A stretch of DNA of 17,383 bases from Okeania sp. (lineage in GTDB: Bacteria; Cyanobacteriota; Cyanobacteriia; Cyanobacteriales; Microcoleaceae). Numbering within the stretch: position 1 is the first letter of the stretch; each line of letters begins with the position of its first letter. Positions 415 through 15,486 of the stretch are shown piece after piece. The position numbers were made by a program, and so were the translations under genes. The stretch is from assembly GCF_035285525.1 (NCBI RefSeq), contig NZ_JAYKGW010000055.1, positions 1-17,383 of the forward strand, given 5' to 3'. The notes beneath the pieces were generated by a model that was given only the letters and a program-made list of their open reading frames with translations, made no database searches and was not told the origin of the DNA.

Positions 415-921
415 TTACCCTTGGAGTTGCAAAACTAAGTGAACTAATTCTGGTAAGATTAACTTTTCTGTAGCCAGCTTGACAGCATTACTAGAACCTG
501 GTACTGAAAATACTAATTTACCTTGATAACTACCAGCAATGGCACGAGAAGCGATCGCCCTGGAACCAATTTCTTGATAACTTAACCACCGAAATAATTC
601 TCCAAAACCGGGTAAAGTTTTTTCCAATAAGTGTTGAATAGCATCATAAGTAGTATCTTTGGGTGCTATTCCGGTTCCACCATTAAAAATTACAGCATCT
701 ATATCTTCTTTTTGACATAGAGTTTCTATTTGGGCGACGACTGCTAATTTTTCATCTTTGATAATCAAATATTCTGTGATAGAATGACCAGCGCTTCTCA
801 AAATTTTCTGAAGTAACTGACCACTTTTATCTGTTTCTTGGGTGCGGGTATCACTAACTGTAATTACAGCACAACGGACAATAATATTTGGAGGAGCAGG
901 ATGAGGAATTTGTTGATCCAT
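415..921 (-). CDS. moaB: Molybdenum cofactor biosynthesis protein B (MoaB/MogA-fold)
   Basis: 168-aa ORF with the MoaB/MogA layout: VITVSDTR near the N-terminus, FNGGTGIAPKDTT (the GGTG motif), PGFGELFR, and a SVPGSSNAV tail. The length is typical of MoaB. Confidence 0.85.
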   Translation of the reverse strand: MDQQIPHPAPPNIIVRCAVITVSDTRTQETDKSGQLLQKILRSAGHSITEYLIIKDEKLAVVAQIETLCQKEDIDAVIFNGGTGIAPKDTTYDAIQHLLEKTLPGFGELFRWLSYQEIGSRAIASRAIAGSYQGKLVFSVPGSSNAVKLATEKLILPELVHLVLQLQG

Positions 922-1666
922 ATTTATTTGGGGAGTAGGGAACTAGAATAAATAGGGCTTGGTGAAAAAAGTATAGGGTTAGTTAATTGTTCGTTATTGA
1001 TTTGCTAACGTTTATTGATATAAGTTCACATAAATTGAGTGAATCAATTTATTTATACAAATTGTGTTAAGATGCAGCCAAAAGAAAAGTTTGTGGTGTG
1101 AAACCAGGCCACTAAGTAACCGCTATACTGATAAGTTGCCTAGCATGGTCAAGTAATTTCAACTTCTGTGAACGCTAATAACCAAGACAACATAAGTTTT
1201 GAAAGCGTCTACAGGTTTTTTTGTAGACTTTGGGAGATACCCTCTCAGTAATTAGATTACTGTGCATTGTTAGCTTTTGTGAGCAATGCAGAGTATCGGT
1301 AGCAAGTGTAAGGAGATTAAATATTTTTTCCTCAAAATACCTGCTTTTTGAGCTTCAAGTACCGAAAACTTCTTAGGGTTTGCTCATGGAAAGTCTTTTG
1401 GTTGAGGTAGGGAGTAGTTAGGACTTAATATTTAGGGGAGTTACAGAGTAAAATGAGCGGAAAAATAGTAAGAGTAATTTTTCTGTCATAGTGAGCAAAA
1501 AATGCTCAATTTTTGAATCTCAGTCCCCTAAAAGCTAACATTTTTTGATACCTAAAAATCCTAAAATCTTCTTCAGATAACTTAAGCTATTAGCCAAGAA
1601 TTTCAATCCTTGGCTTGGCTAGCTATTAGGTATAAAGTTTTGTCTTTTTCAGCATTTCCTGATATA

Positions 1667-2002
1667 TCAAGACTTGTTAAGTTCTAAACCGTACTTTTCA
1701 GCATAACGCTCCATAAACCGCATGAAGCGATCCCATTCTGGTTTAGACTTCATAACATAAAATCCTTCAAGGAATTTAGGCTCACCATTAACAAATCTGG
1801 CCTTAACTTCACGACTTACCATTTGGCCTTCTTCATCAATCATATACATACCTGTAATTTCTTGAGTAATATCTTGGCCTAAAGCTTTGGGATTTTCAAA
1901 AATAAATGTAGCTGTTCCCTGATTACCACTAGCAGAACGAGTTAGACGTACTTGTTCAGTACCTTCTTCATCAAGACCTTGAATAAATTGAATTACGGTC
2001 AT
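1667..2002 (-). CDS. psb28: Photosystem II assembly/reaction-centre protein Psb28
   Basis: 111-aa ORF. IQF..G..E....VRLTRS..G..GTA.F.F, ITGMYMIDEEG, and especially PEWDRFMRFMERYAE match the Psb28 family consensus as I remember it. The length is typical (~110 aa). Confidence 0.92.
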   Translation of the reverse strand: MTVIQFIQGLDEEGTEQVRLTRSASGNQGTATFIFENPKALGQDITQEITGMYMIDEEGQMVSREVKARFVNGEPKFLEGFYVMKSKPEWDRFMRFMERYAEKYGLELNKS

Positions 2003-2635
2003 TAATTTCTTTAATCCTTAATAAATTATTAAGATATCATTATATAGTAGGGAACAGGGAACGGGAAATAGGTAACAGTTAGAAAAACATTTTCCCTATT
2101 CTCTCTCAACGAGGAAGTTATAGCGGTTTTCAGAAAGGTAGACTACAAAACTTCTACCTCTATTGGTCGATTTATGCTTGGTTAAAAATCTTTATCAAAT
2201 AAAAATTGACAAAATTGATTAGTTATGGTATGACTAACGATCCAGTTATTAGTATCAACTACTGAAGTTCTATAGTTGCTTGAAATCTTGAGACCTCATC
2301 TGAAAAACTTGACATATTAAAGATTTGAGCATTTTTTTGTTTGGAAAAAGTGCAACTTTTTGGATAGCTTTGGTTCCTCAAGGAGTCTATTTTGGGGAAA
2401 AGTTGGGTAACAAAATTACTCTCCATCCCCCCATCACCCTATCACCCTATCTCATTAAAAAGACTTTTTCAGCAAACCCTATTTAGGACTACTATAGTAT
2501 CTGGAAAAATTTTGGTTAAGACAATGGTAAGCATTCAGCTCTCAGCTCTGATATCTCAGCTTTATTAAGTTCAAAAGAGGAAAAAGCAATAAGCTGGATT
2601 TCCAAGAATTATAAATTATGGTTCATTAATGGATA

Positions 2636-2749
2636 ATGGATAATTACGTCATTTGTTCAAAAGCTGAATGGGATAACATCCTACAGGAAATGCTTACAGA
2701 CAATGTTGATAGTAAGCTTGAGGTTGACCCTGAAAAATACACACTATAA
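2636..2749 (+). CDS. Possible 37-aa small ORF (MDNYVICSKAEWDNILQEMLTDNVDSKLEVDPEKYTL) or the body of a small RNA
   Basis: Hand-translated ORF ATG(2636)..TAA(2747-2749). Its stop lies inside the left arm of a strong intrinsic terminator. No clear Shine-Dalgarno sequence is present, and the start lies inside a GGATAAT heptamer tract. Confidence 0.2.
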   Translation: MDNYVICSKAEWDNILQEMLTDNVDSKLEVDPEKYTL

Positions 2750-2786
2750 AAAATCAAGGTAATTATATTATAGGTGTGTTTTTTTT
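2739..2786 (+). terminator. Rho-independent terminator
   Basis: The left arm acacactataa (2739-2749) pairs with the right arm ttataggtgtgt (2768-2779). This gives 11 bp with one bulged base and an 18-nt loop. It is followed directly by seven more T (2780-2786). Confidence 0.6.
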
Positions 2787-3002
2787 GTCAAATTAAGTGA
2801 TCAGTTATCAGTTTCTCAGATATATCTATAAATTTTCCACTATGGGTTGACAATTCAAACTTGTCGTTTTTGTACTTCAATTTTCTGACTGAAAATGTGT
2901 TATAAATTAAAAGAATAATTGCTTGATTCATAATTATAGCTGAGAGCTGAATGCTAGCTAAGAGCTGAATGCTTCTGAGATTTTTAGGAGGATAAAATCA
3001 TA

Positions 3003-4067
3003 ATGATTGAAGTTGAGAAGTTAAGCAAAATTTATGGTTCAACCTCAGCACTAAAGGAAGTATCTTTTGCGGTAAAACAAGGAGAAATATTGGGATTTTT
3101 AGGTCCTAATGGTGCTGGTAAAACTACAACAATGCGCATTTTAGCTGGATATTTACCTGCTACAACTGGCACTGCTAAAATTGCTGGTTATGATGTACAT
3201 GAAGATTCGATGGCAGTACGACAATTAATTGGTTATTTGCCAGAAATACCGCCTTTATATCCAGAAATGACGGTGGAAGGATTTCTATTTTTTGTAACTA
3301 GAATTAAGCGAGTTTCTGCGGGCGATCGCTCGGCTAGAGTTAAGTTGGCGATGGAAAGATGTGGGTTATTAGAAAAGCAAAAAGTTTTGATTAAAAAATT
3401 ATCGAAAGGATATAAACAAAGGGTTGGTATTGCTCAAGCTTTGGTACACGATCCCCAGGTAATTATATTAGATGAACCGACTGTTGGTCTTGACCCTAGA
3501 CAAATTATTGAAGTAAGAAATTTAATTAAGAGTTTAGCTGAAGAACATACTATTATTTTATCTACTCATATTTTGCCGGAGGTTAGTATGACTTGTAATC
3601 GAGTGGCGATTATTAATTATGGTGAAATTGTGGCGACGGGTAGTCCGGAAGAAATGAGTAATAGGTTAGTAAGTGGATGGGGATATGAAGTGGAAATTGA
3701 GGGAGAAACTGAGCAGATAGAAACGGGGTTAAAGTTATTAGCTGAAGTTCCAGGAATTGAATCTTTAGAACAAATTAAATCAGATGATGAAAATCGTTTT
3801 AGACTACAAATAAAATCTCAACCGGAAATGGAGGTAGGAAAAGAAATTTCTCATACTATAGTTACTGCTGGTTTGAGTTTATGTGAGTTACGTCGAACTC
3901 GTGCTAGTTTGGAAGATGTTTTCTTGGGTTTAACTACTGGTGAAGTTGCTAACAATTCTATGGTTGAAGTGTCTACAAATTCTCTTCTAGATCAGGAAAA
4001 GTCTGAGGAAGATATTAATGTGATAAAGGATAAAAATCAATTACCTGACCCTTGGGAAGATGGATAA
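3003..4067 (+). CDS. ABC transporter ATP-binding protein (ABC-2 / CcmA-GldA-like subfamily)
   Basis: Walker A GPNGAGKTT, Q-loop region, ABC signature LSKGYKQRV, Walker B IIILDEPTVGLD and H-loop STHIL. AGGAGG at 2986-2991 lies 11 nt upstream of the ATG. There is a ~110-aa C-terminal extension beyond the nucleotide-binding domain. Confidence 0.9.
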   Translation: MIEVEKLSKIYGSTSALKEVSFAVKQGEILGFLGPNGAGKTTTMRILAGYLPATTGTAKIAGYDVHEDSMAVRQLIGYLPEIPPLYPEMTVEGFLFFVTRIKRVSAGDRSARVKLAMERCGLLEKQKVLIKKLSKGYKQRVGIAQALVHDPQVIILDEPTVGLDPRQIIEVRNLIKSLAEEHTIILSTHILPEVSMTCNRVAIINYGEIVATGSPEEMSNRLVSGWGYEVEIEGETEQIETGLKLLAEVPGIESLEQIKSDDENRFRLQIKSQPEMEVGKEISHTIVTAGLSLCELRRTRASLEDVFLGLTTGEVANNSMVEVSTNSLLDQEKSEEDINVIKDKNQLPDPWEDG

Positions 4068-4201
4068 TTAATAATTAATAATTACCTCTGGTTAAAATCG
4101 AGAAGATTTAATAGAGCCATCCTGAAATTAATTGATCATGGATAATTAATAATTAATAATTACCTCTGGTTAAAACCGAGAAGATTTAATAGAGCCATCC
4201 T
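4061..4201. repeat. Tandem direct duplication (two 63-bp copies, period 78 bp) spanning the ABC ATPase stop codon
   Basis: tggataattaataattaataattacctctggttaaaa(t/c)cgagaagatttaatagagccatcct occurs at 4061-4123 and 4139-4201 with one mismatch. Copy 1 contains the final GGA codon and the TAA stop of the upstream CDS. Confidence 0.9.
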
Positions 4202-4343
4202 AAATAGGTTGTAATATTTTATCTAACGGGGTTTGGAGAGAACCCCTACAAAAATGGAATTTTCAAACCAATACTTCCTTCTTCCTTTTTCCTTCTTCAT
4301 TCTAAATAATTTGAACTCTATTGTAATATTAAAAAATTAAGAA

Positions 4344-5144
4344 ATGCTAATAGTAATAAGTAATATTATCGCAATTTACAGAAAAGAATTACAAGGATAT
4401 TTTTCCTCACCATTAGCTTATGCAATTACAGGAATATTTTGGCTTTTGGGAGGATATTTTTTAGTAGCTATTTTGTTAGGAGCAGATGGAATTATTCAAC
4501 AAATTGCTACTAGAGACCAACTCGGAATTACTGAACCACCAGTCGATGCAGCATACGAATTTTTGAAAGCTTATCTAGGTATTATGGGTTCTCTTTCTTT
4601 ATTTTTACTGCCTATGTTATCCATGAATTTATATGCGGAAGAAAGAAAACGAGGTACTTTAGAATTATTAGCAACTTCACCCTTAACAAATTGGTCAGTT
4701 GCAACAGGAAAATTATTAGCTGTATTAACATTTTATATTTCGATGGTACTGCCATTATTGGGGTTGGAAGCTATTGCTATTAATGCAGCGAAACCTGCTA
4801 TTTCACCAGTGTTACTTTTGTTAGGACACGGGGGTTTAATATTACTGGCTGGGGCAGTATTATCATTAGGAATGTTTGTTTCTTCTTTGACAGATAGTGC
4901 AATTTTATCTGCTATTTTGACATTTACTTTAGTATTATTTCTCTGGGTAATTGATGTAGTGGCAAATAATGTTAGTGGTGTTTTAGCGGAGGCATTAAAA
5001 CATTTATCAATGTTGACACATTACACTAATATGATTCAGGGACTTGTAGATACTAGCAGCATTATTATGTTGTTGAGTTATGTGGTTTTAGGAGTATTTT
5101 TAACTGCTCAATCAATTGATGCTTTACGGTTCCAACGTTCTTAA
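4344..5144 (+). CDS. ABC-2 family transporter permease
   Basis: 266-aa protein with about six hydrophobic helices. There is one N-terminal TM, a loop, then five clustered TMs, as in ABC-2/GldF/NosY-like permeases. It lies directly downstream of, and co-oriented with, the ABC ATPase. Confidence 0.85.
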   Translation: MLIVISNIIAIYRKELQGYFSSPLAYAITGIFWLLGGYFLVAILLGADGIIQQIATRDQLGITEPPVDAAYEFLKAYLGIMGSLSLFLLPMLSMNLYAEERKRGTLELLATSPLTNWSVATGKLLAVLTFYISMVLPLLGLEAIAINAAKPAISPVLLLLGHGGLILLAGAVLSLGMFVSSLTDSAILSAILTFTLVLFLWVIDVVANNVSGVLAEALKHLSMLTHYTNMIQGLVDTSSIIMLLSYVVLGVFLTAQSIDALRFQRS

Positions 5145-5374
5145 AATGAAGGAAGAAGCAAGTTCATTAATGGATAATGGATAATGGATAATTGATAATT
5201 ACTTCTTTCTAAAAGGGAGAAGCTTTTAACTTGAATTATTTAATTAGATATGATATCTAAATGCTGACAGAGGAAGCAGGAAAATAAAAGTTTATAGGGG
5301 AAAAGGTTTTTTTATAACTGATGACAAGAGATGATATACAATATATGTAGAATGAAATTTACAGTATATTTAAA

Positions 5375-5462
5375 CTTGGTGAGATACACCCATAGCGGGC
5401 AAGATTCCCACACTAAAAATGTTTAATTATTAATATCTGTATTTCATATATTTGGAATCTAC
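5375..5462. repeat. Left arm of an imperfect inverted repeat flanking the 5551-6168 gene
   Basis: The reverse complement of 5375-5462 aligns without gaps to 6178-6263. In my hand alignment, 50 of 65 positions match in the inner part and 21 of 26 in the outer part, e.g. gattccaa...tacagat.ttaata.ttaaa..ttt.tagtgtgg...gggtgta.ct. Confidence 0.75.
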
Positions 5463-5550
5463 TTTTCTTCCCTACATTACTACATTATATTCCAGAAGTT
5501 ACTAATAATTGATAATTGATAATTAATAACTGAGTTAATGGAGTCTCACA

Positions 5551-6168
5551 ATGTCTAAGACAAAAATATTACAAGAGGGTCAGTCTTATACTTTTCGGTC
5601 TTATTTTGAACTGTCTTATGAAGCTGATGAAATTCTAGCAGAGTTAAATTATTCATTAGTTAAATCTCGTTTATCTTTGCCGAAAACAACAAAAAAATTA
5701 GAAAGTTTATCCGAAATACAGAATAAACTAGATGATATTTTACCTTTTGTTAGTTTAAGTAATGAAACTGCTAGAAGAGAAATTTTAGTGTCTCCAATTT
5801 TATTGGAAATTGTTCATTATTGTCATTGTCAGTTAAGAATTGAATATTATTTGAAAGTTAATGACTGGTTAAAAGGTAGTTTGGATTATTTATTACGTTC
5901 GACTAATAATTTATTAGTTATTGAAGCGAAAAATGATGATTTAACTAGAGGTTTTACTCAGCTAGCTGTAGAGTTAATTGCATTAGCTGAAGTTGAAGAA
6001 AATAATATTTTTTATGGTGCAGTGACAATGGGGGATGTGTGGCGTTTTGGTAAATTAAATAAAGCTGAAAAGCAAATTACACAAGATATCAATTTATTTA
6101 AAATTCCAGATGATATAAAGGATTTGGGTGCAGTTTTAGTGGGTATTTTGGAAGGAGTAGAAAATTAA
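5551..6168 (+). CDS. Hypothetical protein with a PD-(D/E)xK nuclease-fold signature (HsdR-N-like / restriction-endonuclease-like)
   Basis: 205-aa ORF. E86 (ILLEIV), D112 (SLDYLL), then E125-A-K127 (LLVIEAKNDD) and Q137 have the spacing expected of a PD-(D/E)xK active site. A decayed paralogue at 14509-15127 has lost exactly these residues. Confidence 0.6.
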   Translation: MSKTKILQEGQSYTFRSYFELSYEADEILAELNYSLVKSRLSLPKTTKKLESLSEIQNKLDDILPFVSLSNETARREILVSPILLEIVHYCHCQLRIEYYLKVNDWLKGSLDYLLRSTNNLLVIEAKNDDLTRGFTQLAVELIALAEVEENNIFYGAVTMGDVWRFGKLNKAEKQITQDINLFKIPDDIKDLGAVLVGILEGVEN

Positions 6169-6177
6169 AATAATACA

Positions 6178-6263
6178 GCAGATTCCAAGTTTCTGAAGTA
6201 CAGATTTTAATAGTTAAATGTTTCTAGTGTGGACATTTTGTCGGTGATGGGTGTACCTGATCA
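6178..6263. repeat. Right arm of the inverted repeat flanking the 5551-6168 gene
   Basis: See the 5375-5462 entry. It starts 10 nt after the stop codon. A third copy in the same orientation follows the pseudogene (15128-15228). Confidence 0.75.
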
Positions 6264-6343
6264 TAACAGGAAGCGCTCTCAAACCTATTTTGGTATCTTT
6301 TGAATTGATCTTCTTTCTAGAAAATTTGTCATCCCTGGGAAAC

Positions 6344-6565
6344 TTAATGATTTTTAGTTGAATAAAAAATCATGCGCATAGACGAGTAAGGGCAGTCAAA
6401 ATCTAACATATCACAATTTTGAGCAGGATGCAACCATAAATCTTTGGCAGCGCATTTTTTTTCGGGGTGCTTCATAAAATGAAAATGTGAATGATTTTCC
6501 ACTGAGGAAGTTATGGATGGAAAGATTTCATCATGGGAAAAACCGGATTCTATATTATTTATCAT
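6344..6565 (-). pseudogene. Small ORF, copy A; possible degenerate C-terminal remnant of a RAYT/IS200-like tyrosine transposase
   Basis: The 73-aa ORF shares ...VENHSHFHFMKHPEKKCAAKDLWLHPAQN.DMLD....YSS.RM.FYSTKNH with copy B. The substitutions between copies are clustered, and every one I checked was nonsynonymous, which suggests no purifying selection. See the findings for the tentative RAYT resemblance. Confidence 0.3.
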
Positions 6566-6593
6566 TATAATGAAGCGATCGCTTCATTATAAT
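6564..6593. repeat. Perfect 30-bp palindrome centred on a HIP1 site
   Basis: attataatgaagcgatcgcttcattataat. I checked base by base that 15 of 15 positions pair around the centre between 6578 and 6579 (GCGA|TCGC). Confidence 0.95.
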
Positions 6594-6805
6594 TTTATCA
6601 CTACATATACAGGACTACCCCACTGAGGAAGTTATGGATGGAAAGATTTCATCATGGGAAAAATCTGATTTTCATCTTTATTTCTCCTGAGCGAGTATCT
6701 TGCGGAGGATGGGTGTACCTGATCATAAAAGGAAGCGCTCTTAAACTTATTTTGGTATCTTTTGAATTGATCTTCTTTCTAGAAAATTTGTCATCCCTGG
6801 GAAAC

Positions 6806-6991
6806 TTAATGATTTTTAGTTGAATAAAAAGTCATGCGTATAGACGAATAAATCCAGTTAACATCTAACATATCACTATTTTGAGCAGGATGCAACCATA
6901 AATCTTTGGCAGCGCATTTTTTTTCGGGGTGCTTCATAAAATGAAAATGTGAATGATTTTCCACTAGACATCTCCAAAAATTATCAAGCAC
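6806..6991 (-). pseudogene. Small ORF, copy B; possible degenerate C-terminal remnant of a RAYT/IS200-like tyrosine transposase
   Basis: 61-aa ORF with a GTG start immediately preceded by an in-frame TAA. NFWRCLVEN..HFHFMKHPEKK...VNWIYSS loosely parallels the RAYT C-terminus pattern (R)FWEH.hR......H.DYIh.NPVK......DWP(Y/F)SS that I recall. Confidence 0.3.
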
Positions 6992-7176
6992 TTACTGTAA
7001 CTATCTTTGAGGAAGCGATCGCGAGTTCGTCCAGATAGTCATTTTTTATGGGACTTATAGTATTACAGATAGTTATTGTTAATTATTAACCATTTTTATG
7101 TAATTATTTCTTGCTTTTCACTAAACCTAAAGTCATAATTTATGTTGACATTAATGCTCCTATTCTTAATGCTGAT

Positions 7177-7222
7177 AGCTAAATGCTTACTCATAAAGAA
7201 ATTTCATCGTAAGCATTCAGCT
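7177..7222. repeat. Hairpin-forming copy of the AGCTGAATGCTTAC dispersed repeat
   Basis: agctaaatgcttac (7177-7190) and gtaagcattcagct (7209-7222) are reverse complements with one mismatch, separated by an 18-nt loop. The hairpin lies ~260 nt downstream of the 487-aa gene stop. There is no U-tract, so it is not called a terminator. Confidence 0.7.
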
Positions 7223-7482
7223 ATTAACTTTCAGATATTCCTACGGAATGCACTCGGATTCAACAACAAGACTTTTCGTTCTTAAATAGTGTTTAAATGA
7301 ATCAATATTTAAGGTCAAATAAACCTGCTTTGGTAGGAATATTTATAAAGCTTTGATCGCGACATAATAGCTAATAGCTAAATGCTTACATTTCATCCAA
7401 GCTCCCTACTATTATCTAAAACCATCAATCAATATTATGTACTTCATCAAATATAAAACCCTTGTATTTTGTAGCTTACCTG

Positions 7483-8946
7483 TCATTCCCTAACATCATC
7501 ATCAGGCAAATAGAATGTCACATTATTGCTATTATTTTTCTCATCATCTTGGATTAACCTTTCACCTTCCTTAATCACCCAATCTGTAAACCTTTCTTCC
7601 TCATATATAACCCATTGGTTGTTCTCATTTTTAACAATCCATCTTGTCTCATTAGATAATCTTTGAAGTAACTTGTAATATTCTATTTTATTTTCTTGAG
7701 ACAGTTCCTCTTGGGTGATTAAAAGTTCTTGTTCAATACTACTCCACTTATTATTATCAATCACTTCTAATAATTTATCCAAAAATTTGGTTCCTGCTCC
7801 TTCTATTGGTAAAGTTATTGTTTTAGCAGCTTTTTTAGGTTTACGAGGGGGAGGAATTTCAATTCCTATTCCTAATAAAATAATAAAACCATCAACAAGT
7901 AGAGCCATAAAAGCTGCTCCAATAGCTGCTTCTTCACCCTTTTCAATTTTCAGAAAAGGTTCAATAATTCTAACTCTAGCATCTTCATCAAAATACTTTG
8001 CTTGGAGTTCTTTATATTTGGGATTTAAAGGGTCTAAACTACCATTATATTTTTCTGGCAAACAAACAAATTCTGGTTCTGTTGGTAAACATTTTGGTTT
8101 AACTTCAGCTAAAGCTTTACGACCTGCATCAAAAATTTCTTGTGGTTCTTTTCCTTCTAATTCATATTCAAAAAAAGGTCTTAGTTCATCAGCTACTCGC
8201 TTAACTCCATTGAATCTAATTTGCAGTTGATTTTTTTCTCTGGTTAGTTGTTGAAATTTAGGTCCTTCTCCTTCTCTGAAAGTGCCTCCTGTTCCACCTA
8301 CTTCATCTTTTATTTGTTTATTTTTGGCGTTAATTTCATCTTCTAATTGTTGAGCTTTTTCTTCAATAGGAGTAAAAATTTCATTGACTAAATTTTGATG
8401 AGCAGATATTGCTCTATTTAAGCCATCTTTTTCTCGTGTTTCTGACACTAAAGTATCATAATAAGCAAAGAAACTTGTATAAACACTGACTATAGAAAAG
8501 GAACCTACAGCCATCCATTTTAACCAACGAGCGTGTTTGAGAGTGGAGCCTGAAGTTAATAGAAATAATAATGCTTGAATAGTGGCACCACCAGACCAAC
8601 CTACATATTTAGGTAAAATTTGTGCTGCTCCATACATGGTTGTAAATCCACTGGTAATGTTGAGGATAATTAATGCTATAAATAGTTTAAAATCTTTTTT
8701 GGGTTTTGGCTCGGTGTATATTTTATTGTTTTCGTTATAAGTTATTATATTGTTTCTATTATTTCGGTTATTATCTATCAAGTAGGAATCGGTTTTTACA
8801 ACATCTTTTGTGTTTCTTTGGTAAGGTTTTTTTCTGTTACATCCTGGTTCGCGACACTCGTTTTCGTCTGGTGACATTTTTTGTAGGATATGGCGATTAT
8901 TTGGATATCCGGTGCATTCCCAAAATCCATTTTCTTGATTGTTCAT
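7483..8946 (-). CDS. Membrane protein: N-terminal Cys/His knuckle, 3 TM helices, coiled coil, 4th TM helix, C-terminal soluble domain. Putative effector of the GTPase cluster
   Basis: 487-aa ORF. C11, H19, C31 and C36 lie in WECTGYPNNRHILQKMSPDENECREPGC, followed by an N/R-rich linker. Hydrophobic helices are at about 86-108, 119-136, 141-163 and 340-364. Residues 165-260 are charged and heptad-like (EEKAQQLEDEINAKNKQIKDE..., REKNQLQIRF). After PPPRKPKK comes a ~120-aa C-terminal domain. No enzyme motif was recognised. Confidence 0.85.
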   Translation of the reverse strand: MNNQENGFWECTGYPNNRHILQKMSPDENECREPGCNRKKPYQRNTKDVVKTDSYLIDNNRNNRNNIITYNENNKIYTEPKPKKDFKLFIALIILNITSGFTTMYGAAQILPKYVGWSGGATIQALLFLLTSGSTLKHARWLKWMAVGSFSIVSVYTSFFAYYDTLVSETREKDGLNRAISAHQNLVNEIFTPIEEKAQQLEDEINAKNKQIKDEVGGTGGTFREGEGPKFQQLTREKNQLQIRFNGVKRVADELRPFFEYELEGKEPQEIFDAGRKALAEVKPKCLPTEPEFVCLPEKYNGSLDPLNPKYKELQAKYFDEDARVRIIEPFLKIEKGEEAAIGAAFMALLVDGFIILLGIGIEIPPPRKPKKAAKTITLPIEGAGTKFLDKLLEVIDNNKWSSIEQELLITQEELSQENKIEYYKLLQRLSNETRWIVKNENNQWVIYEEERFTDWVIKEGERLIQDDEKNNSNNVTFYLPDDDVRE

Positions 8947-8995
8947 AACAAAAAGAGTCTATTAATTTAACTAAGTTTTTCTTGGCTGATGGTGA

Positions 8996-9117
8996 GCTAA
9001 GAAGCATTTAAAGTGCTTTTTAGGAATTCAGAATTCAGAATCCAGACTTCATAAGAAATAAGGGTTACATTCTTAACTAGGTAGAGAAGAAATATGGGGT
9101 TTAAACGTTGAACAGCT
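8996..9117 (-). repeat. 122-bp element, copy A, located 50-170 nt upstream of the 487-aa gene start
   Basis: It aligns without gaps to 14066-14187 at roughly 80% identity by eye. Identical runs include aaagtgctttttaggaatt, attacattcttaactag and aaatatggggtttaaa. Confidence 0.8.
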
Positions 9118-9348
9118 TAATTGTAAAATTTGCCAATAAATTTCATTATAGCAAATATAGTAATCTTATTTGATTCGTGTAAAAAATTCAAAAGCTTTTA
9201 GGGAATAGGGAAGAAAGAATAGGCAATAGACAAGAGTTTCAGTTCTTTTTATTTACTTTTTGATTTGTCACAACCTATTTAATATTTCTATACTAAATTT
9301 AGATTTAATTTCTGTGTAAAATATCTAAGATATTTCTCAAGGCATTTT

Positions 9349-9561
9349 AAGCATTCATTCGTCAGCTATCAGCTATTAGATGTAGCTTCTAGTCCCTGAT
9401 AAAAACTTTATTAATTGAGCCAAAAAAATCTTACTACAAAATCCAGTTTACTTAACATTAGAGTTCATATTAATTGAAATTATGTCCTTAAGCACAGATT
9501 CTTTTTGCTGATAGCTGACTGCTAATAGCTGTTTGCGCAGCATGACCCAGGAAATGCTTAC
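9349..9561. repeat. Palindromic MITE-like dispersed element abutting the stop codon of the 909-aa gene
   Basis: In the left arm aagcattcattcgtcagctatcagc, gtcagctatcagc (9361-9373) pairs perfectly with gctgatagctgac (9507-9519). The outer aagcatt pairs with aatgctt. The terminal 27 nt, gcgcagcatgacccaggaaatgcttac (9535-9561), are identical to 14382-14408. Confidence 0.6.
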
Positions 9562-12290
9562 TAAGGCATTACTTCATTATATGATATCTCACTTTTAACA
9601 TTATGCTCGGCGTAACGCATAATTTCTAATAGCTTTGAATAATCGTAGAAAAGCCAACATTTTTTCAGGAAATTTTTCAGACTTTGAAGGTCTTTAAATT
9701 GACTGATTATTTCTTTAGCACATTCTATCAAATACTTCTTTTCTTCCTCAAAAAAATTCTTGGCTCTCTCAGACAAATTAGTTAAGGTTAAGGATAATGA
9801 ATCTGCACTTAAACGCCAGTGAATATTTATTAATTCTAGACAATCTTTATTGCTTAATTTTGATAAGATAACTTCAGATGTTAGCAAATTCCATAATTTT
9901 TCATCAATTGATTTTTGCTGATGCCAAATTTCAGTAATGTACTCTATAAGTTCTCCACTAATTAATTCGATAGGAGTATCATTACTTAAATCTAACTTTT
10001 CATGTTTATTTGCCCAATAAATAAATTTAGGTACATATTTATGGTAAGTACTTGTTAAATGTTCTCGCATTTTTCTCAATGTTTTGCGATTCAGTAATTC
10101 CCAAGCTTTACTAGCTATAAATTCTGCTTCTATCTCTTTATTTTCTGGATAAGTATCTAATAATTGTAGCCATGTTTCTAGCATCTCAACAGGAAAACCT
10201 TTTCCTACAGTTTTATCCAGAAAATTTGTTCTGTCTATATCATTATTACAAAGAAAATTTGAGAGATTTTGCCAATTTATCCAGCGATTAGAATTACTAG
10301 CTCTAATTAATTTACTTAAAATTGAAATCAAGTCAACTTTGTCTAAAGATTTTTCTGGAGAATTATCTTGAAAATATTGGGAATTAAACCATTCATAAAC
10401 TGCCATGAAATAATTTGTCTGAAACTGTACTCTTTGTTCTGAAAAAGTAACACTCTTTTGAATTGCAGACTCCAATAATGGTAAAGTTTTTTGATAAGTT
10501 ACTAAGTGTGACTGTAGACAAATAAGATAAAGTTTATTAGCTTCAGAATTAGTAAGCTTTAAATCATTAGCAATCTCAGGAATATGGAAAATACCTTTGT
10601 CTTTTTCCAATAAATAGAAAGTTAAATAATCTAATGTATCAGGAAAATTTTTCTGCCAAGATTTCTTTAAATGACTTTGGGCAAAAGTTTCTTTATCTAA
10701 AAGAGGAAAAAGTCGTTCAATAAACAAATGTTTAAAATTATCTCTGGTAATTCTAACTAATGCTAAATCCCATAAGTGGAATTTCTCTTTTTCAGAACGA
10801 AATATCTTTTCACAACCAATTATTAGTTCTTCCAGTTCTTGATAATCTGAATAATTTTTAGAACGTTTTTCTATTAGTTGAAAGCAATCATTTTGTAGCT
10901 CTTGTAAAATATCATCTCTAATATTTTTATCCGTAAACCAATCTATAAACTTATTGGCAATGAGAATTTCTAGAGAATCAAAAAATTTATGATCTGCTTT
11001 TACTATCTCTAAAAATTTATCTGGCAAAAAACGATAGATTGTAAATAACAAACTCAGTATTAAACTGCCATTATTTCCAGATATTGGCAATGCTTTCCAG
11101 AGAAGTTCTAAAAGTTTTAAATTATTTCTATTTTGGGCTGATGAATTTTCCCAAAACTTATGCACCAGAAAATTTTGTACCTTATCTTCCATTCGAGAAA
11201 TATACTTGCCCAAAGTTTCAATTTTGTCTGGTTTCTCTGGTAGGTATTTAAAGATAAAATCTAGTGATGGATTATTTAACTTCAACCAACCATCTACTTC
11301 CTCAAACTCCCAAACTAAATCATCAGAATTATCCTTAGTATTCTTGTCAAGGTACTCACATATAGTAATTAAATCTTCATATTTATCTTTGTTCGGAGCA
11401 ATAAAATATTGAACATATTCATGGTTGAGAAATTCCTCTTTATCAAACTCATATTTATTAAAATCTAGCCACACCATATTTTCAGGTAAAGAACCTATTC
11501 CAGAACCATCTAAATTAACTATTATTTGTGCCCACTTACAATATTTAGGCTCAACCGAACCTATAGCTAAAGATATTTGATTACGCATATTAGTAGGCAA
11601 AAAAAGCAAAATATTATCTAGTAGTTTAAGGGCTAAATTTTTTGCCTTTTGTTCAGCAGTAAGCAATAATCTTTTACCGTTCAAAATTACTGATAATGCT
11701 TGAAGTAAAATATCTTTCCCATTTTCGGGAAGTCTTTTCCATGTTTCTCTTATTGTATTCTTGACTTTTTCATCTGTACCTTCTTCTGCTGGTAATAAAT
11801 TAAGAAAACTTTCTTTTCCTAAAAGCCAAGAATTTTTCTCAGAATCATAAGGTAAATTCACATCACTAAAACTTGGTATTGTCAGATCGCTAAGAGTTCT
11901 TAATAACCAAAAAATTCGGTTGTTAAATGCAGCCATTTCTGCTTCAGAAACAAAAACATAACGGTGCTGAAAAAATGACCGACTGCCACTTCTCAAAAAG
12001 AAATTTTTATCTTTATTAAAAGCAGGAGCGGTTTGAATAAGTATAATTTTTTTGCTAGATAAAACTTGAGTATTATTTCGACAAATTCCTACAGCTTGAG
12101 GATTTTGTTCACCACTTTGACTGCCCCAAAAAGAATAATTTGTTTCTGCAATATCTGCCAAATCTGATAAATTATTGTTTAAATTTTCACTGTAAGAAAC
12201 TATGCGGTATCCACTTTCTTTTCCGACAAACTTACCGTAGATAAACTGGTCAAACTTAGATGTTTGTGACATGATATATTTCTCCTTCAT
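9561..12290 (-). CDS. Large (903-909 aa) predominantly alpha-helical protein with a GAP1-like (GTPase-associated protein 1) N-terminal signature; function unknown
   Basis: Uninterrupted 909-codon ORF. The likely true start is the ATG at 12272 (M7), because a perfect AAGGAG (12287-12282) lies 9 nt upstream of it. The N-terminus FDQFIYGKFVGKESGYRIVSYSENL fits the pattern hydrophobic-Q-h-h-Y/H-G-...-G-[YHF]-R-h-h-x-x-S that I recall from GAP1 N-domains. The remaining ~650 aa are L/K/E/N/F-rich with a helical-repeat character and no catalytic motif. Confidence 0.9.
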   Translation of the reverse strand: MKEKYIMSQTSKFDQFIYGKFVGKESGYRIVSYSENLNNNLSDLADIAETNYSFWGSQSGEQNPQAVGICRNNTQVLSSKKIILIQTAPAFNKDKNFFLRSGSRSFFQHRYVFVSEAEMAAFNNRIFWLLRTLSDLTIPSFSDVNLPYDSEKNSWLLGKESFLNLLPAEEGTDEKVKNTIRETWKRLPENGKDILLQALSVILNGKRLLLTAEQKAKNLALKLLDNILLFLPTNMRNQISLAIGSVEPKYCKWAQIIVNLDGSGIGSLPENMVWLDFNKYEFDKEEFLNHEYVQYFIAPNKDKYEDLITICEYLDKNTKDNSDDLVWEFEEVDGWLKLNNPSLDFIFKYLPEKPDKIETLGKYISRMEDKVQNFLVHKFWENSSAQNRNNLKLLELLWKALPISGNNGSLILSLLFTIYRFLPDKFLEIVKADHKFFDSLEILIANKFIDWFTDKNIRDDILQELQNDCFQLIEKRSKNYSDYQELEELIIGCEKIFRSEKEKFHLWDLALVRITRDNFKHLFIERLFPLLDKETFAQSHLKKSWQKNFPDTLDYLTFYLLEKDKGIFHIPEIANDLKLTNSEANKLYLICLQSHLVTYQKTLPLLESAIQKSVTFSEQRVQFQTNYFMAVYEWFNSQYFQDNSPEKSLDKVDLISILSKLIRASNSNRWINWQNLSNFLCNNDIDRTNFLDKTVGKGFPVEMLETWLQLLDTYPENKEIEAEFIASKAWELLNRKTLRKMREHLTSTYHKYVPKFIYWANKHEKLDLSNDTPIELISGELIEYITEIWHQQKSIDEKLWNLLTSEVILSKLSNKDCLELINIHWRLSADSLSLTLTNLSERAKNFFEEEKKYLIECAKEIISQFKDLQSLKNFLKKCWLFYDYSKLLEIMRYAEHNVKSEISYNEVMP

Positions 12291-12312
12291 TAATTGATAA
12301 TTAGAGTTCGCT

Positions 12313-12363
12313 AAAAAAGTCTTTTTTCCTATTTCCTATTTTCTCCATACCTGTTCCCTAAAT
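12313..12363. repeat. Direct repeat copy 1 in the GTPase / 909-aa gene spacer
   Basis: aaaaaagtcttttttcctatttcctattttctccatacctgttccctaaa resembles the copy at 12497-12544. On the minus strand it reads TTTAGGGAACAGGTATGGAG.AATAGGAAATAGGAAAAAAG, which belongs to the GGGA(A/G)(T/C)AGG repeat class. Confidence 0.8.
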
Positions 12364-12496
12364 CAGTAAACCCTAATTATCTTTGTTTAAATCCTGACTT
12401 AGACTTAATTGAATATCAGGAAATATTCTCGCGCTTTTTTTATCCTGAAAAAGAGAGGTTTTATAACTTTATTTTTCGGTGTATTTCAGATTTGCC

Positions 12497-12544
12497 AAAA
12501 TACTTTTTTCTTATTTCCTATTCCCTCCATACCTATTCCCTAAA
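12497..12544. repeat. Direct repeat copy 2 in the GTPase / 909-aa gene spacer
   Basis: aaaatacttttttcttatttcctattccctccatacctattccctaaa lies ~183 bp from copy 1 in the same orientation. Confidence 0.8.
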
Positions 12545-12586
12545 AGAGATAAATTTTTGGCTTTATTCAAAATTGAAATGCACTCA

Positions 12587-13717
12587 CTAAAATTGTATTT
12601 CAGTATGAGAATTTGTTGAAGAAGTATTAGGAATATTTGGAGGTTGTTCCTTAATTCCTTGTATTAGCCATTCAATAGGTGAATACATATTTATTGGATT
12701 GAAAGGAACTGTCATCTCAATTCTATATTTGTTTTTAGAGTTGTTTGATTTAAACTTTTCTGTATTATTATTTTTATTGCCAAAATTTTCCACGTCTACA
12801 TCCTCTATATCCTCTGTCGAAAATATAGAATCTTCTTCAATTTTATATGTGTTATCTTTAGGTTTTTCTTCTTCGTTAGGTATCACAGGTGATTTGACAT
12901 TATTACCATCTTTATAAGTTCCAAAAGCAGAAATATAGAAGAATTGACAGCGATTTTCTAAACTAGGATTTATGTTCAATTTAGGCAAATTTTTAGAACC
13001 TTCTATTTTTAGATGAAAATAGTTTTTTAACCATGTCAACTTAGCATTTTTACCTCTTCCCAAAATATCTAGAAACATCTGTTCAGCATACTTATATTGT
13101 TCTTCATAAACCTGGAGCTTTTGATTAACTTTAGGATGATCTATTTTAGTAATGCCAAAAGCTACATATTGCTCTAATCTATTTTTATTGCTCTTGATTC
13201 GCATCAGATTAAATAATTTCATTAGTAAGATATAATAAGAATCTTCAAAACTCTGTATATCTTCCTCTAGAGGACTTAATAAAAATAAAATTCCATGACA
13301 TCCAAGAAGATAATCAACTACATTTAATTCGCGATTATTCTCTTCATAAAAGTGCTTTTCTGGATTCTCAAAAACTTCTCCAGGAAGGTCAAAGAATGTT
13401 AATTCAATGTTGGTATTGTCGCTGTTTTCAATTGTGTAAGAATATTTACTATATTCTCCTTTTTGGGTAGGATTTACAAACTCTCCTTTCTCTAAAAGTT
13501 TTGTACCTTCATAAATATAATTTGCTGTAATTTCATCAGTTGGTGTAATTCTTCCTAAATCGGATAATTCTTGATATAATCTGAGCATATAAACAGATTT
13601 TCCGGCGTTGGGAAAACCCCAAATTCCTAAACGAATTTGTGAAGGAAGAATTCGTGTTTTGGGAATTGGTTCATTGATAGATTGATTGAAAGTTTCGTTG
13701 ATTTTGGTGTTAGACAT
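12587..13717 (-). CDS. TRAFAC-class P-loop GTPase (Era/MMR_HSR1-like P-loop) with a low-complexity linker and a conserved-looking C-terminal tail
   Basis: 376-aa ORF. G1 is GFPNAGKS (aa 34-41). The candidate G2 is T84 (VNPTQ). G3 is DLPG (110-113) after the hydrophobic strand IELTFF. G4 is TKID (190-193) after YVAFGI. G5 is SAF (263-265). AAGGGGTG lies just upstream of the ATG. Residues ~280-345 are an acidic, N/K-rich low-complexity stretch, followed by YRIEMTVPFNPINMYSPIEWLIQGI. Confidence 0.85.
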   Translation of the reverse strand: MSNTKINETFNQSINEPIPKTRILPSQIRLGIWGFPNAGKSVYMLRLYQELSDLGRITPTDEITANYIYEGTKLLEKGEFVNPTQKGEYSKYSYTIENSDNTNIELTFFDLPGEVFENPEKHFYEENNRELNVVDYLLGCHGILFLLSPLEEDIQSFEDSYYILLMKLFNLMRIKSNKNRLEQYVAFGITKIDHPKVNQKLQVYEEQYKYAEQMFLDILGRGKNAKLTWLKNYFHLKIEGSKNLPKLNINPSLENRCQFFYISAFGTYKDGNNVKSPVIPNEEEKPKDNTYKIEEDSIFSTEDIEDVDVENFGNKNNNTEKFKSNNSKNKYRIEMTVPFNPINMYSPIEWLIQGIKEQPPNIPNTSSTNSHTEIQF

Positions 13718-13797
13718 AAACTCAATTCACCCCTTGGATAATTAGCTTTACTTCAATATAAATTTACCGCTAATTTAGCAGTGTAAGTATTTCGTGA

Positions 13798-13986
13798 GGA
13801 ATGCTGCGCAAACAGCTATTAGCTATTAGCTATCAGCTATCAGCTATCATTTTTTGTAAGAATTAAGCAAATTTAAGGTTGAATAATCGGCAATTTCATT
13901 TATTAGTTTTAATTTTTATTAGAGATTAATTCCTACTGCGGTTTGACAGTGAGTTAATAACTCATAGCTGACGGCTGAATGCTTAC
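13798..13986. repeat. Inverted-orientation member of the palindromic dispersed repeat family, containing five tandem heptamers
   Basis: The reverse complement of aatgctgcgcaaacagc (13800-13816), gctgtttgcgcagcatt, is an exact match to 9528-9543 (gctgtttgcgcagcat). (C/T)AGCTAT is repeated five times at 13813-13847. The partner arm is catagctgacggctgaatgcttac (13963-13986). The element lies 80-270 nt upstream of the GTPase start. Confidence 0.55.
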
Positions 13987-14065
13987 TTAGCAGTAAAGAA
14001 AAACTATAACTGGACATTCATGGAACGCCCAAATATGTTTATTATAATTGCTCTTGGTAAAATAA

Positions 14066-14187
14066 GCTAAGACAAATTTAAAGTGCTTTTTAGGAATTAA
14101 TAATTCAGAATCCATAATTAATAAGCAATAAGGATTACATTCTTAACTAGATATAAAACAAATATGGGGTTTAAATACTTAACGGCT
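14066..14187 (-). repeat. 122-bp element, copy B, located 350-470 nt upstream of the GTPase gene start
   Basis: Gap-free alignment to 8996-9117 in the same orientation. Like copy A, it is followed by a GGGA.TAGG tract and then a palindromic element ending in the identical 27-mer. Confidence 0.8.
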
Positions 14188-14301
14188 GATAGTATCATCT
14201 ATCAAAGTTAACCATTGTTTTTCTAATTCTGGTTATTCCTTTAATTCTTAAAAAGGAGTAGGGAAAGTAGGTATAATATCAAGGATGAAAAAATAACTTA
14301 T

Positions 14302-14408
14302 GTAAGCATTCAGCTATTAGTCGTCAGCTCAATCAGAATAATACTTAAACTTGAAGAAGTGCTGACAGCTCATAGCTGTTGGCGCAGCATGACCCAGGAA
14401 ATGCTTAC
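14302..14408. repeat. Short palindromic MITE-like element of the same family as 9349-9561
   Basis: gtaagcatt (14302-14310) pairs with aatgcttac (14400-14408), and gtcagc pairs with gctgac. The right arm ends with the 27-mer gcgcagcatgacccaggaaatgcttac. Confidence 0.6.
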
Positions 14409-14508
14409 CTTTTATCTAACACTAAAACAAATAGCTAATAGCTGACTGTTAAATGCTGAATGCTTATTAACTTGCTAATAACTGATAATTGATTGAATGG
14501 AGTCTCAC

Positions 14509-15127
14509 AATGCCTAAAACAAAAATATTACAAGAGGGTAAATCTTATGCTTTTCAGTCTTATTTTGAACTATCTTATGAAGCTGATGAAATTCTAGGAG
14601 AGTTAAATTATTCATTAATTAAATCTGATTGATCTTTGCCCTAGACAACAAAAAAATTAGAAAGTTTATCCGAAGTACAGAATAAACTAGAGAAGATTTT
14701 ACCGTTTGTTAATTTAAGTAATGAAACTGCTAGAAGATAAATTTTAGTGTCTCCAATTTTATTGGAAACTGTTAATTATTGTCATTGCCAGTTAAGAATT
14801 GAATATTATTTAAAAGTCAATAATTGGTTGAAAGGTAATTGAGAATATTTATTATGTTCCACGAATAATTTATTAGTTATTGGAGCCAAAAATGATGATT
14901 TAACTAGAGGTTTTACTCAAATAGATGTAGAATTAATTCCATTAGCTGAAGTTGAAGAAAAAAATATTTTCTATGGTGGAGTGACAATAGGGAATGTGTC
15001 GCATTTTGGTAAATTAAATAAAGCCGAAAAGTAAATTATACAAGATATCAATTTATTGAAAATTCCAGACGATATAAAAGATTTAGGTGCAATTTTGGTG
15101 GGTATTTGGGAAGGAGTAGAAAATTAA
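14509..15127 (+). pseudogene. Decayed paralogue of the PD-(D/E)xK gene at 5551-6168
   Basis: It is colinear with 5551-6168 at roughly 85-90% nt identity by eye. It carries one extra A in the A-run after codon 4 (619 nt versus 618 nt), which causes a frameshift. In the homologous frame there are five nonsense codons (TGA, TAG, TAA, TGA, TAA). The active-site equivalents are altered: LDYLL becomes *EYLL and VIEAK becomes VIGAK. Confidence 0.85.
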
Positions 15128-15228
15128 AATAATAGAGCAAGCAAATTATAAGTATCTGAAGTACAGATATTAATAATTAAATGTTTTTAGTGCAGACATA
15201 TTGCCCGCGTGAGTGTATCTCACCAAGG
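15128..15228. repeat. Third copy of the inverted-repeat-arm sequence (same orientation as 6178-6263)
   Basis: tacagatattaataattaaatgtttttagtgcagacatattgcccgcgtgagtgtatctcaccaag (15162-15227) matches the reverse complement of 5375-5441 more closely than 6199-6263 does. Confidence 0.75.
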
Positions 15229-15486
15229 AAGAATCTGCTGTATATTCAGTTGAATAATTATAAATAGGTTTTGGTGGTTGAAAATCTAGTTGTTGAGGTA
15301 GTAAGTAGGGAGGTAAAGAAGTTCATACAAGTCCCTACTATTAGACACAATGTATATTACAATTTATTCAGGATTACCATAATTTATAGCTAACTGTTTA
15401 AAGCAATATTTGTAATAATAGTTTGCTAGCTTGATATTCGTATTTATGTTAAAAAGTTAAATAGTCTAAAAATAAGGATTTTAACC

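Follow-up and report, generated by a model that had tools for sequence, protein, structure and literature searches.

A four-helix membrane protein linked to DO-GTPase and dynamin-like genes in cyanobacteria, and its possible role as the hub of a conflict-type cassette

Why should a gene for a polytopic membrane protein follow the genes for a GTPase and a large orphan protein in a cyanobacterium? The question is raised by a stretch of 17,383 nucleotides from Okeania sp. (RefSeq assembly GCF_035285525.1, contig NZ_JAYKGW010000055.1, positions 1 to 17,383 of the forward strand), referred to here as the window. The membrane protein, termed Mem, has 487 amino acids and is encoded at 7483..8946 on the minus strand, downstream of the genes for the large protein (termed Big) and for a DO-GTPase. 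A preliminary description, made from the letters of the window, had suggested that Mem might be a membrane-disrupting or oligomerizing effector gated by the GTPase. Our analysis indicates that Mem belongs to a mobile cyanobacterial cassette whose full form also includes a dynamin-like protein (DLP). Within this DO-GTPase and dynamin cassette, which is probably of a conflict type, Mem could well serve as a membrane hub or transducer, a reading that we favour but hold tentatively.

The gene is the sole long open reading frame (ORF) at its coordinates, as judged from the ORF list and its translation, with a stop codon at 7483-7485. All of the features named in the preliminary description are present, though on the minus strand; in the plus-strand frame, the same coordinates are riddled with stop codons. 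There are 28 close homologues of Mem, with identities of 27-80%, and a profile searched against 1.84 billion representatives returned 202 clusters at E<=1e-3. The family thus comprises some 200 clusters at 50% identity. Pairwise comparison with three orthologues gives a ratio of nonsynonymous to synonymous substitution rates (dN/dS) of 0.29-0.44 for the whole of Mem. Because of these homologue numbers and this constraint, the ORF is a real gene rather than a chance reading frame, and Mem is confirmed as a genuine conserved protein. Word-indexed searches with two diverse alignments (A2 and A3) returned hardly anything beyond the close relatives. Promoter and terminator scans around the gene gave counts no higher than those in shuffled sequence, and Rfam and tRNA scans of the whole window were empty.

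Related loci were gathered by exact-protein look-ups, by scans of species-representative genomes and of metagenomes, and by a plasmid search, and their ORFs were searched with phmmer and hmmsearch. The full cassette has the order DLP (~720 amino acids), DO-GTPase (~370 amino acids), Big (910-1030 amino acids) and finally Mem. The intact four-gene form is found at nine distinct loci, where Mem is 37-80% identical to that of the window. The hosts are Okeania, Trichodesmium (including T. erythraeum IMS101), a metagenome-assembled genome of the Coleofasciculaceae, Chroococcales, uncultured cyanobacteria and Stanieria, and the copy in Stanieria cyanosphaera PCC 7437 is carried by plasmid pSTA7437.02 (92988-100894). 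The DLP gene is located upstream of the DO-GTPase gene in nine or more related loci (for example, at 42-2207 in locus L001 and at 272-2437 in L008). The DO-GTPase and Big genes are located directly upstream of Mem in all cyanobacterial relatives with enough upstream sequence, except for a Dapis locus (L010), where only Big is found, and locus L039, which has a Mem-DLP pair. This recurrence supports the earlier proposal that Mem is functionally tied to the GTPase and to the large protein. The DLP, which is the usual fourth partner, had not been mentioned in that proposal.

Several arrangements depart from the full order. In Nostoc UHCC 0252 (L019), there are genes for a DO-GTPase, Big and Mem, and no DLP gene occurs within 6-8 kb; this is a deeply diverged and independent three-gene form. 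In the Leptolyngbyales loci L021 and L039, Mem is followed by a DLP and then by a NACHT-like NTPase, without a DO-GTPase or Big. In L039, this arrangement spans 5255-11567, and the NTPase is a STAND protein of 731 amino acids with the motifs GGPGAGKST and LLDGLDE. Since the Leptolyngbyales arrangement has the DLP only and the Nostoc arrangement has the DO-GTPase and Big, Mem is tied to each type of GTPase separately. Some Okeania-like genomes carry tandem Big paralogues (907 and 1056 amino acids at 3816-9871 in L001; 908 and 1003 amino acids at 3819-9871 in L008), and the single Big of the window aligns to both of them.

The cassette also appears in states of decay. At the same chromosomal site as in the window, Okeania sp. 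SIO1I7 (L046, 4390-12926) has lost Mem residues 148-419 and has a split DLP gene. In a metagenomic contig (L047, 3081-5186), an insertion of ~760 bp separates the zinc ribbon from the remainder of Mem. The Dapis locus lacks both GTPases, and the DO-GTPase gene is frameshifted in L009 and L005. In addition, two Okeania contigs (L035 6661-8803 and L036 9038-11180, proteins P0009 and P0026) have a DUF1822 domain (PF08852) fused to the transmembrane (TM) part of Mem. These two loci are rearranged, with fragments of Big and DLP on the opposite strand.

The surroundings of the cassette suggest the kind of biology in which it takes part. Effector-associated domain (EAD)-coupled trypsin effectors and DO-GTPases are hallmarks of GTPase-centric conflict systems (Kaur et al. 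2020, PMC7159879). In the Coleofasciculaceae locus (L002, 11607-13227), genes for an EAD1-trypsin protein and for a second EAD1 protein are located immediately after Mem on the same strand, and genes for a relaxase and a type IV coupling protein (T4CP) are found upstream of the cassette. In Nostoc (L019, 11201-13620), an EAD8-trypsin gene and a second EAD8-like gene likewise come after Mem on the same strand, although the EAD8 matches are below threshold (22-23 bits versus 27). The paired EADs are 39-49% identical within each of these loci. There is no EAD on the core proteins of either locus by BLAST, and none in the window. The Stanieria plasmid copy is flanked by the insertion sequences (IS) IS4 and IS630 and by an NB-ARC gene. 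Relatives of Mem that stand alone adjoin an integrase, HNH/TnpB genes, a BrnT toxin or AAA_35/HTH_VMAP-M9 genes. The cassette genes have dN/dS values of 0.29-0.51, compared with 0.13-0.26 for the flanking housekeeping genes, and thus evolve about twofold faster at nonsynonymous sites. Together, the gene content and context mark the cassette as mobile and accessory, and it looks like a defence-type element. Most likely, it is a conflict module, acting against phages or mobile elements, that is related to the DO-GTPase-centric systems. A separate observation concerns the L002 locus, in which three more dynamin-family genes and a gene for a 352-amino-acid protein of unknown nature lie on the opposite strand downstream of the cassette (13224-20668).

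What kind of protein is Mem? The layout given in the preliminary description, with three clustered TM helices, a charged helical segment, a fourth TM helix and a tail, is borne out by hydropathy and by an AlphaFold2 (AF2) model of the whole protein, which was made with 22 homologues as input and has a mean predicted local distance difference test score (pLDDT) of 73.7. In the following, residue numbers are those of the 487-residue Mem of the window, nucleotide coordinates refer to the minus strand of the window, and conserved columns are those of an alignment of close relatives (A1). The invariant columns fall into three clusters, namely the TM helices, a juxtamembrane Cys region and a few aromatic residues of the tail.

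A CHCC zinc-ribbon-like module that is predicted to be cytoplasmic occupies residues 9-40 (8827..8922) and includes W9, C11, H19, C31 and C36. The C-x7-H-x11-C-x4-C pattern noted earlier is exact (C11-x7-H19-x11-C31-x4-C36). The four ligand columns are kept in all 20 of the aligned relatives that have the N-terminus, with a single change of H to K, and the second knuckle is mostly a classic CPxCG among the relatives. With two knuckles and four conserved Cys/His ligands, the N-terminus has the sequence features that define a zinc ribbon, and it could bind zinc as previously proposed. The AF2 model shows short beta hairpins in this region at low confidence. The module is missing from P0027 and P0028, and also from the majority of the distant members of the family, whose matches begin at profile position 50-60. 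A low-complexity linker rich in N, R and K follows (residues 41-84; 8695..8826) and includes the sequence NNRNNRNN at 59-66. This linker is predicted to be disordered (AF2 pLDDT 29-38), and it is only 46-49% identical to orthologues that are ~90% identical across the TM region, with a dN/dS of 0.4-1.3. The N/R-rich stretch that had been singled out as distinctive is therefore present but unconserved.

The TM1-TM3 bundle (residues 85-164; 8455..8694) was identified from hydropathy and AF2 helices. Kyte-Doolittle scans and the model place TM1 at 86-108, TM2 at 113-131, TM3 at 144-163 and TM4 at 340-362, and the best 17-residue Kyte-Doolittle means of these helices are 1.6-2.5 across the family. 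A failure to find TM helices would have counted against a membrane protein; the helices are present. The bundle contains most of the invariant columns, has a dN/dS of 0.14-0.20 and carries signature polar motifs (LN..SG.TT..GA.QI.P; IQ.LLFLL.SGS; S.YTSFFAYY). The invariant TM residues are N96, S99, T103, G106, Q124, S154, T157, S158, F159, F160, Y162 and D352.

Beyond TM3 lies a helical hairpin with a Gly-rich tip (residues 165-260; 8167..8454) that is predicted to be extracytoplasmic. In the AF2 model, with helices at 140-216 and 229-259, TM3 continues as a helix to residue 216, and this is followed by the Gly-rich turn GGTGGTFREGEGP and by the second helix. The segment had been described as a coiled coil of ~100 amino acids. 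It is indeed helical and ~95 amino acids long, and in a heptad test against shuffled sequences the second arm gives a clear signal (p ~0.0005) and the first a borderline one (p ~0.05), but the segment is a hairpin split by the turn rather than one continuous coil. It is the most variable folded segment of Mem (dN/dS 0.41-0.74). A CGxxC motif is located at the tip in 15 of 22 relatives, whereas the window has GEGP and its nearest relatives likewise have G.GP.

The best-conserved soluble stretch is the juxtamembrane Cys region of ~75 amino acids (residues 261-338; 7933..8166), which was not listed in the preliminary description. Its near-invariant columns read NCLP.EP.FVCLP..Y...DP..PKY...YFDED, C286 and C295 are kept in 20 of 22 relatives, and its dN/dS of 0.06-0.14 is the lowest in Mem. 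The next segment (residues 339-372; 7831..7932) comprises TM4, with the motif LLVDG.II.LG, a Kyte-Doolittle mean of 2.4-2.5 and the invariant residues D352, I355, L358 and G359, together with the basic stop-transfer sequence PPPRKPKK (365-372). This second sequence feature that had been called distinctive is also present, but only positive charge is conserved downstream of TM4 (mean of 4.3 K/R across the family). Finally, a C-terminal alpha/beta tail domain of ~115 amino acids (residues 373-487; 7486..7830) is predicted to be cytoplasmic. A separate AF2 model of the tail has a pLDDT of 75.5 and a predicted template modelling score (pTM) of 0.69, with elements in the order beta-alpha-beta-alpha-beta-beta-alpha-beta, and F388, W436, W445 and W456 are its invariant aromatics. 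The fold of the tail bears a weak likeness to a winged helix.

The orientation of these parts can be estimated from the distribution of charge. Across the family, the net K/R values are +2.9 for the TM2-TM3 loop, +2.6 after TM4, +0.6 for the TM1-TM2 loop and 0.0 after TM3. Because of these counts and the N-terminal zinc ribbon, a topology with both termini inside is favoured, and the hairpin and Cys region probably lie outside the cytoplasm. According to the positive-inside rule, the segment that had been called a coiled coil is then most likely extracytoplasmic and would therefore be out of reach of the GTPase.

Does Mem belong to a known family? A DUF4407-like layout had been proposed for it, and DUF4407 proteins do have TM helices clustered near the N-terminus, then a charged helical segment, and one more TM helix late in the sequence. 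However, the window Mem scores only 16.2 bits (E 0.0065) against the Pfam model PF14362, which has a gathering threshold of 31.3. Among close relatives, 12 of 22 match weakly, as do 11 of 39 more diverse ones. These matches are collinear, with E values of 1e-4 to 0.03 overall, and the best of them reaches 21.1 bits (E 1e-4 to 2e-4). These matches are limited to approximately positions 116-232 of the 297 in the profile, which correspond to the first helical arm (residues 180-264), and they never include a TM helix. Mem differs further by its added zinc ribbon, Cys region and C-terminal domain, and its own family is marked by its conserved TM helices. Membership of DUF4407 is thus not supported, with scores below threshold throughout the ~60 relatives scanned. 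The likeness appears to be one of layout, so that Mem would be at most a very distant superfamily relative, and the matches may simply reflect coiled-coil composition.

Other searches point in the same direction. Mem has no match in NCBIfam, PADLOC or PHROG, and in Pfam it has only the sub-threshold DUF4407 match and none to SLATT. The Mem profile returned only coiled-coil noise from bZIP proteins among PDB sequences, and a Foldseek comparison of the whole model with the PDB gave nothing significant, the best match being the periplasmic sensor of TorS (E 0.1). The RefSeq label of the Stanieria orthologue is 'hypothetical protein'. By these profile and structure comparisons, Mem represents an unnamed protein family. 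A phage origin for Mem was also considered and rejected, since there are no relatives in phage records or IMG/VR.

These features suggest how a hub might operate. The tail, the zinc ribbon and the loop between TM2 and TM3 would lie in the cytoplasm, and the hairpin and Cys region would project into the periplasm or the thylakoid lumen. Perhaps the DO-GTPase and Big, plus the DLP where it is present, are docked onto the membrane by the zinc ribbon and the tail. The polar TM bundle (N96, Q124, S154, T157, S158, Y162, Y163 and D352) and the ectodomain might then couple the GTPase machinery to the state of the envelope, with Mem acting either as a sensor and transducer or as the place where the membrane is acted upon. 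One lineage pairs Mem with the DLP only, another pairs it with the DO-GTPase and Big only, and most lineages have both, a pattern that fits a hub, albeit among loci that were all found through Mem. A bolder version holds that Mem is the first of a new class of membrane protein in bacteria, a transmembrane receptor and effector dedicated to both the DLP and the DO-GTPase in an unrecognized cyanobacterial immune system, wherein the ectodomain would sense a breach of the envelope and GTP hydrolysis would drive sealing or killing by way of the polar TM bundle. We regard that more specific scheme as a speculative one that is rather unlikely to hold as stated.

Among characterized or predicted systems, the closest resemblance is to the DO-GTPase-centric systems with GAP1-N1 or GAP1-N2 (Kaur, Burroughs, Iyer & Aravind 2020, PMC7159879). 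These share with the cassette a DO-GTPase1-family GTPase followed by a large conserved protein, a frequent occurrence of zinc ribbons and TM components, and mobility together with enrichment in filamentous or multicellular bacteria. The EAD-trypsin effectors found next to Mem at two loci may be a further resemblance. In contrast, Big lacks detectable GAP1-N, GAP1-M and GAP1-C domains, the DLP and the four-TM Mem appear as core components, and the zinc ribbon is carried by the membrane protein rather than by the GTPase. There is also no Pfam match to a GASH or FNIII partner in the cassette ORFs of the window or in related loci. TM effectors such as SLATT recur in DO-GTPase systems (PMC7159879). 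SLATT proteins are small, variable, predicted effectors of DO-GTPase/GAP1 systems with two TM helices, whereas Mem, with four TM helices and an ectodomain, belongs to the constant core of its cassette.

A second point of comparison is provided by dynamins that act in defence or repair, such as the two-gene LeoA/LeoBC system (Millman et al. 2022) and DynA of B. subtilis. These have a dynamin-family GTPase and an accessory context like that of a defence island, and they are thought to act at the membrane. Unlike the cassette, they lack a DO-GTPase, Big and any polytopic membrane protein as a dedicated partner, and the window itself has no DLP. When compared with the PADLOC models for LeoA/LeoBC, the cassette DLPs gave a single LeoBC match of 21 bits (for the DLP of L021) and nothing otherwise. 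A functional precedent comes from E. coli, in which the dynamin-like GTPase and accessory protein of the RdcA/RdcB pair act directly on the polytopic MASE1 domain of DgcE, with GTP hydrolysis being required (Pfiffer et al. 2019, PMC6510439). The likeness is purely one of function; the sequences are unrelated, and DgcE has a GGDEF output whereas Mem has none that is recognizable.

In the window, Big has 909 amino acids as listed (9561..12290, minus strand) and is the gene directly upstream of Mem by synteny. Its true start is probably M7 (nucleotide 12272): this residue is invariant among the aligned sequences, and publicly the protein is called with 903 amino acids. None of 10 Big homologues matches anything in Pfam, NCBIfam, PADLOC, PHROG or the PDB, and a profile search returns only cyanobacterial 'hypothetical proteins'. 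An identity with GAP1 was considered for Big and is unsupported, as no GAP1 domain was matched. The DO-GTPase gene (376 amino acids; 12587..13717, minus strand) scores 41.5 bits against DO-GTPase1 (PF19975), above the gathering threshold of 27, and also 23.8 bits against PF19993; its orthologues match too. Its G motifs are intact and are kept across orthologues (G1 GFPNAGKS at 34-41, G3 DLPGE at 110-114 and G4 TKID at 190-193). On this score and these motifs, the protein is classed as a bona fide member of DO-GTPase1. Sequence searches of the PDB returned nothing for the DLP, for the DO-GTPase or for the Big profile.

The window carries a reduced version of the cassette. Mem is separated from Big by a spacer of 614 bp filled with repeats that resemble miniature inverted-repeat transposable elements (MITEs) (8947..9560), whereas related loci have 30-130 bp or the second Big paralogue at this position. 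Similar repeats now occupy the site at which related loci have the DLP gene (13718..14477). Nucleotide similarity to the Okeania loci stops at 13782, leaving 65 bp of shared sequence ahead of the DO-GTPase start, and a tblastn search of the window with the DLP returns no remnant. Comparison with the related loci thus indicates that the DLP gene, encoding ~720 amino acids, has been deleted and that a three-gene form remains. The MITE-like repeats are 85-94% identical, occur as direct and inverted copies and flank the Big and DO-GTPase genes on either side; 9507-9561 recurs at 13783-13837 and 14361-14408, and 8995-9117 recurs at 14065-14187. They could have mediated the deletion.

The window is otherwise collinear with the Okeania loci (ABC transporter, Psb28 and MoCF). 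The proposal that Mem belongs to a transport or biogenesis operon was rejected, since the neighbouring ABC transporter gene runs in the opposite direction and borders the insertion site in every Okeania relative, regardless of the state of the cassette. Homologues in such a pathway would have spoken against the link to the GTPase, and no homologue of Mem is found in an operon of this type.

Two further elements lie near the cassette. An intact PD-(D/E)xK nuclease-like gene (5551-6168, plus strand) matches the PADLOC model PDLC01472, 'Cas-associated PD_DExK', with 95.6 bits. A partial second copy (14478-15131) is ~90% identical, and the two direct repeats enclose the three cassette genes; in the relatives L007 and L009 there is a single copy, located upstream of the DLP gene. 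There is also a repeat of 269 nucleotides (6235-6503 and 6697-6965) whose copies are 94% identical and are 462 nucleotides apart. It has no Rfam match and carries small minus-strand ORFs (6344-6565 and 6806-6991) with the common peptide ENHSHFHFMKHPEKKCAAKDLWLHPAQN.

A number of observations weigh against a role for Mem as the hub of a conflict cassette. Every locus was found by way of Mem, which makes its standing as the common element partly circular, and reciprocal look-ups from Big returned only the same chromosomal site. Distant relatives of Mem, both in high-GC contigs resembling Myxococcota and in further cyanobacteria, occur alone and have no GTPase gene in their vicinity. The core fold would therefore have an activity that is independent of the GTPases and is unexplained by pure docking. 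The high-GC relatives are found among ordinary genes (DNA polymerase III alpha, a radical SAM enzyme and GH3). No GAP1 Pfam domain was matched in Big at E<=1 among 10 homologues, no PADLOC model matches any cassette component, and phage records and IMG/VR contain no phage-borne copies of Mem. The topology is derived solely from hydropathy and charge counts, and the stretch before TM4 is also mildly positive (+1.4). In the window, the DLP gene is gone and a repeat-filled spacer of 614 bp precedes Mem, and for this reason the cassette there may be decaying. Finally, the architecture, conservation, operon linkage and cassette mobility are what the sequences display directly; any roles beyond these are ones that we infer.

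The alternative that survives best is that Mem is itself the lethal output. It would then be a GTPase-gated, oligomerizing channel or pore that depolarizes the membrane in abortive infection, with the soluble proteins acting as sensor and switch. The TM helices are highly conserved and contain invariant polar or acidic residues (N96, Q124, S154, T157, S158 and D352), which is unusual for a plain anchor, and the three-gene forms of the window and Nostoc, like the stand-alone relatives with their integrase, HNH/TnpB, BrnT and AAA_35/HTH_VMAP-M9 neighbours, mostly lack another obvious effector. The recurrence of TM effectors such as SLATT in DO-GTPase systems would also fit. However, effectors are variable and Mem is constant, and in two loci the EAD-trypsin effectors come after Mem. 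The large and constrained ectodomain would be superfluous for a pore, and Mem shows no likeness to known pore formers or PADLOC effectors. We therefore regard a pore as possible but unlikely.

Whether the Mem of the window is still functional is a separate question, which was judged independently of the other alternatives. It might be a decaying remnant left behind by the loss of the DLP gene, and both the MITE-like repeats in the two intergenic regions and the wide separation of Mem from Big would be in keeping with this. So would the relatives at the same site, which show an internal deletion in Mem, split DLP and DO-GTPase genes and the loss of both GTPases. Against this, the three remaining ORFs are full length relative to their homologues, their invariant residues and GTPase motifs are intact, and the independent and deeply diverged three-gene form of Nostoc suggests that the DLP is dispensable. 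Pairwise dN/dS values are also below 0.45, although such values do not isolate the window's own branch. A non-functional Mem is thus improbable.

Another possibility is that Mem has no part in conflict and recruits the DLP so that thylakoid, septal or plasma membranes can be fused, divided or repaired, as a housekeeping or developmental function. The consistent adjacency of a dynamin-family gene, the ability of bacterial DLPs to remodel and repair membranes as described in the literature, and the occurrence of the cassette mainly in morphologically complex cyanobacteria could all be accommodated. In T. erythraeum, the cassette even lies among housekeeping genes (gyrA and a glycogen-branching-type amylase). 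Such a function is difficult to reconcile with a patchy distribution, a plasmid-borne copy flanked by IS elements, repeated pseudogenization at one locus in close relatives, and a loss in the lineage of the window that left the flanking genes in place. The EAD-trypsin and NACHT neighbours suggest conflict instead, and variants without a DLP exist, which leaves this explanation with a small chance of being correct.

The weakest proposal, that Mem is a membrane-tethered nucleic-acid binder in the style of ToxR, with a zinc ribbon and a winged-helix-like tail that bind phage DNA or a promoter, can draw on the facts that zinc ribbons often bind nucleic acids and that the top Foldseek matches of the tail are uniformly winged-helix DNA-binding regulators (Sso10a, IclR, MntR, MarR, GntR and DtxR), but it is very improbable, as these matches are non-significant (E 0.7-3, TM-score 0.35-0.45), no helix-turn-helix family is matched in Pfam, and the conserved residues of the tail are mostly Trp and Phe rather than those of a basic recognition helix.

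The cassette is undescribed, and the Mem family itself is uncharacterized. Whatever its function, this family merits its own definition, as it comprises ~200 clusters without a relative in Pfam, NCBIfam or the PDB. We know of no bacterial dynamin with a known integral-membrane receptor. If Mem is indeed the membrane hub of a conflict-type cassette, this would extend the DO-GTPase conflict systems into the cyanobacteria, from which they were reported to be nearly absent in the paper that defined them (PMC7159879), and it would be the first link between these systems and a DLP with a dedicated polytopic membrane partner. It would also provide a genetically defined pair of a DLP and a membrane protein through which the targeting of bacterial dynamins and their role in defence become testable, and this pair is present in the cultured strains Stanieria cyanosphaera PCC 7437, where it resides on the plasmid, and Trichodesmium erythraeum IMS101.

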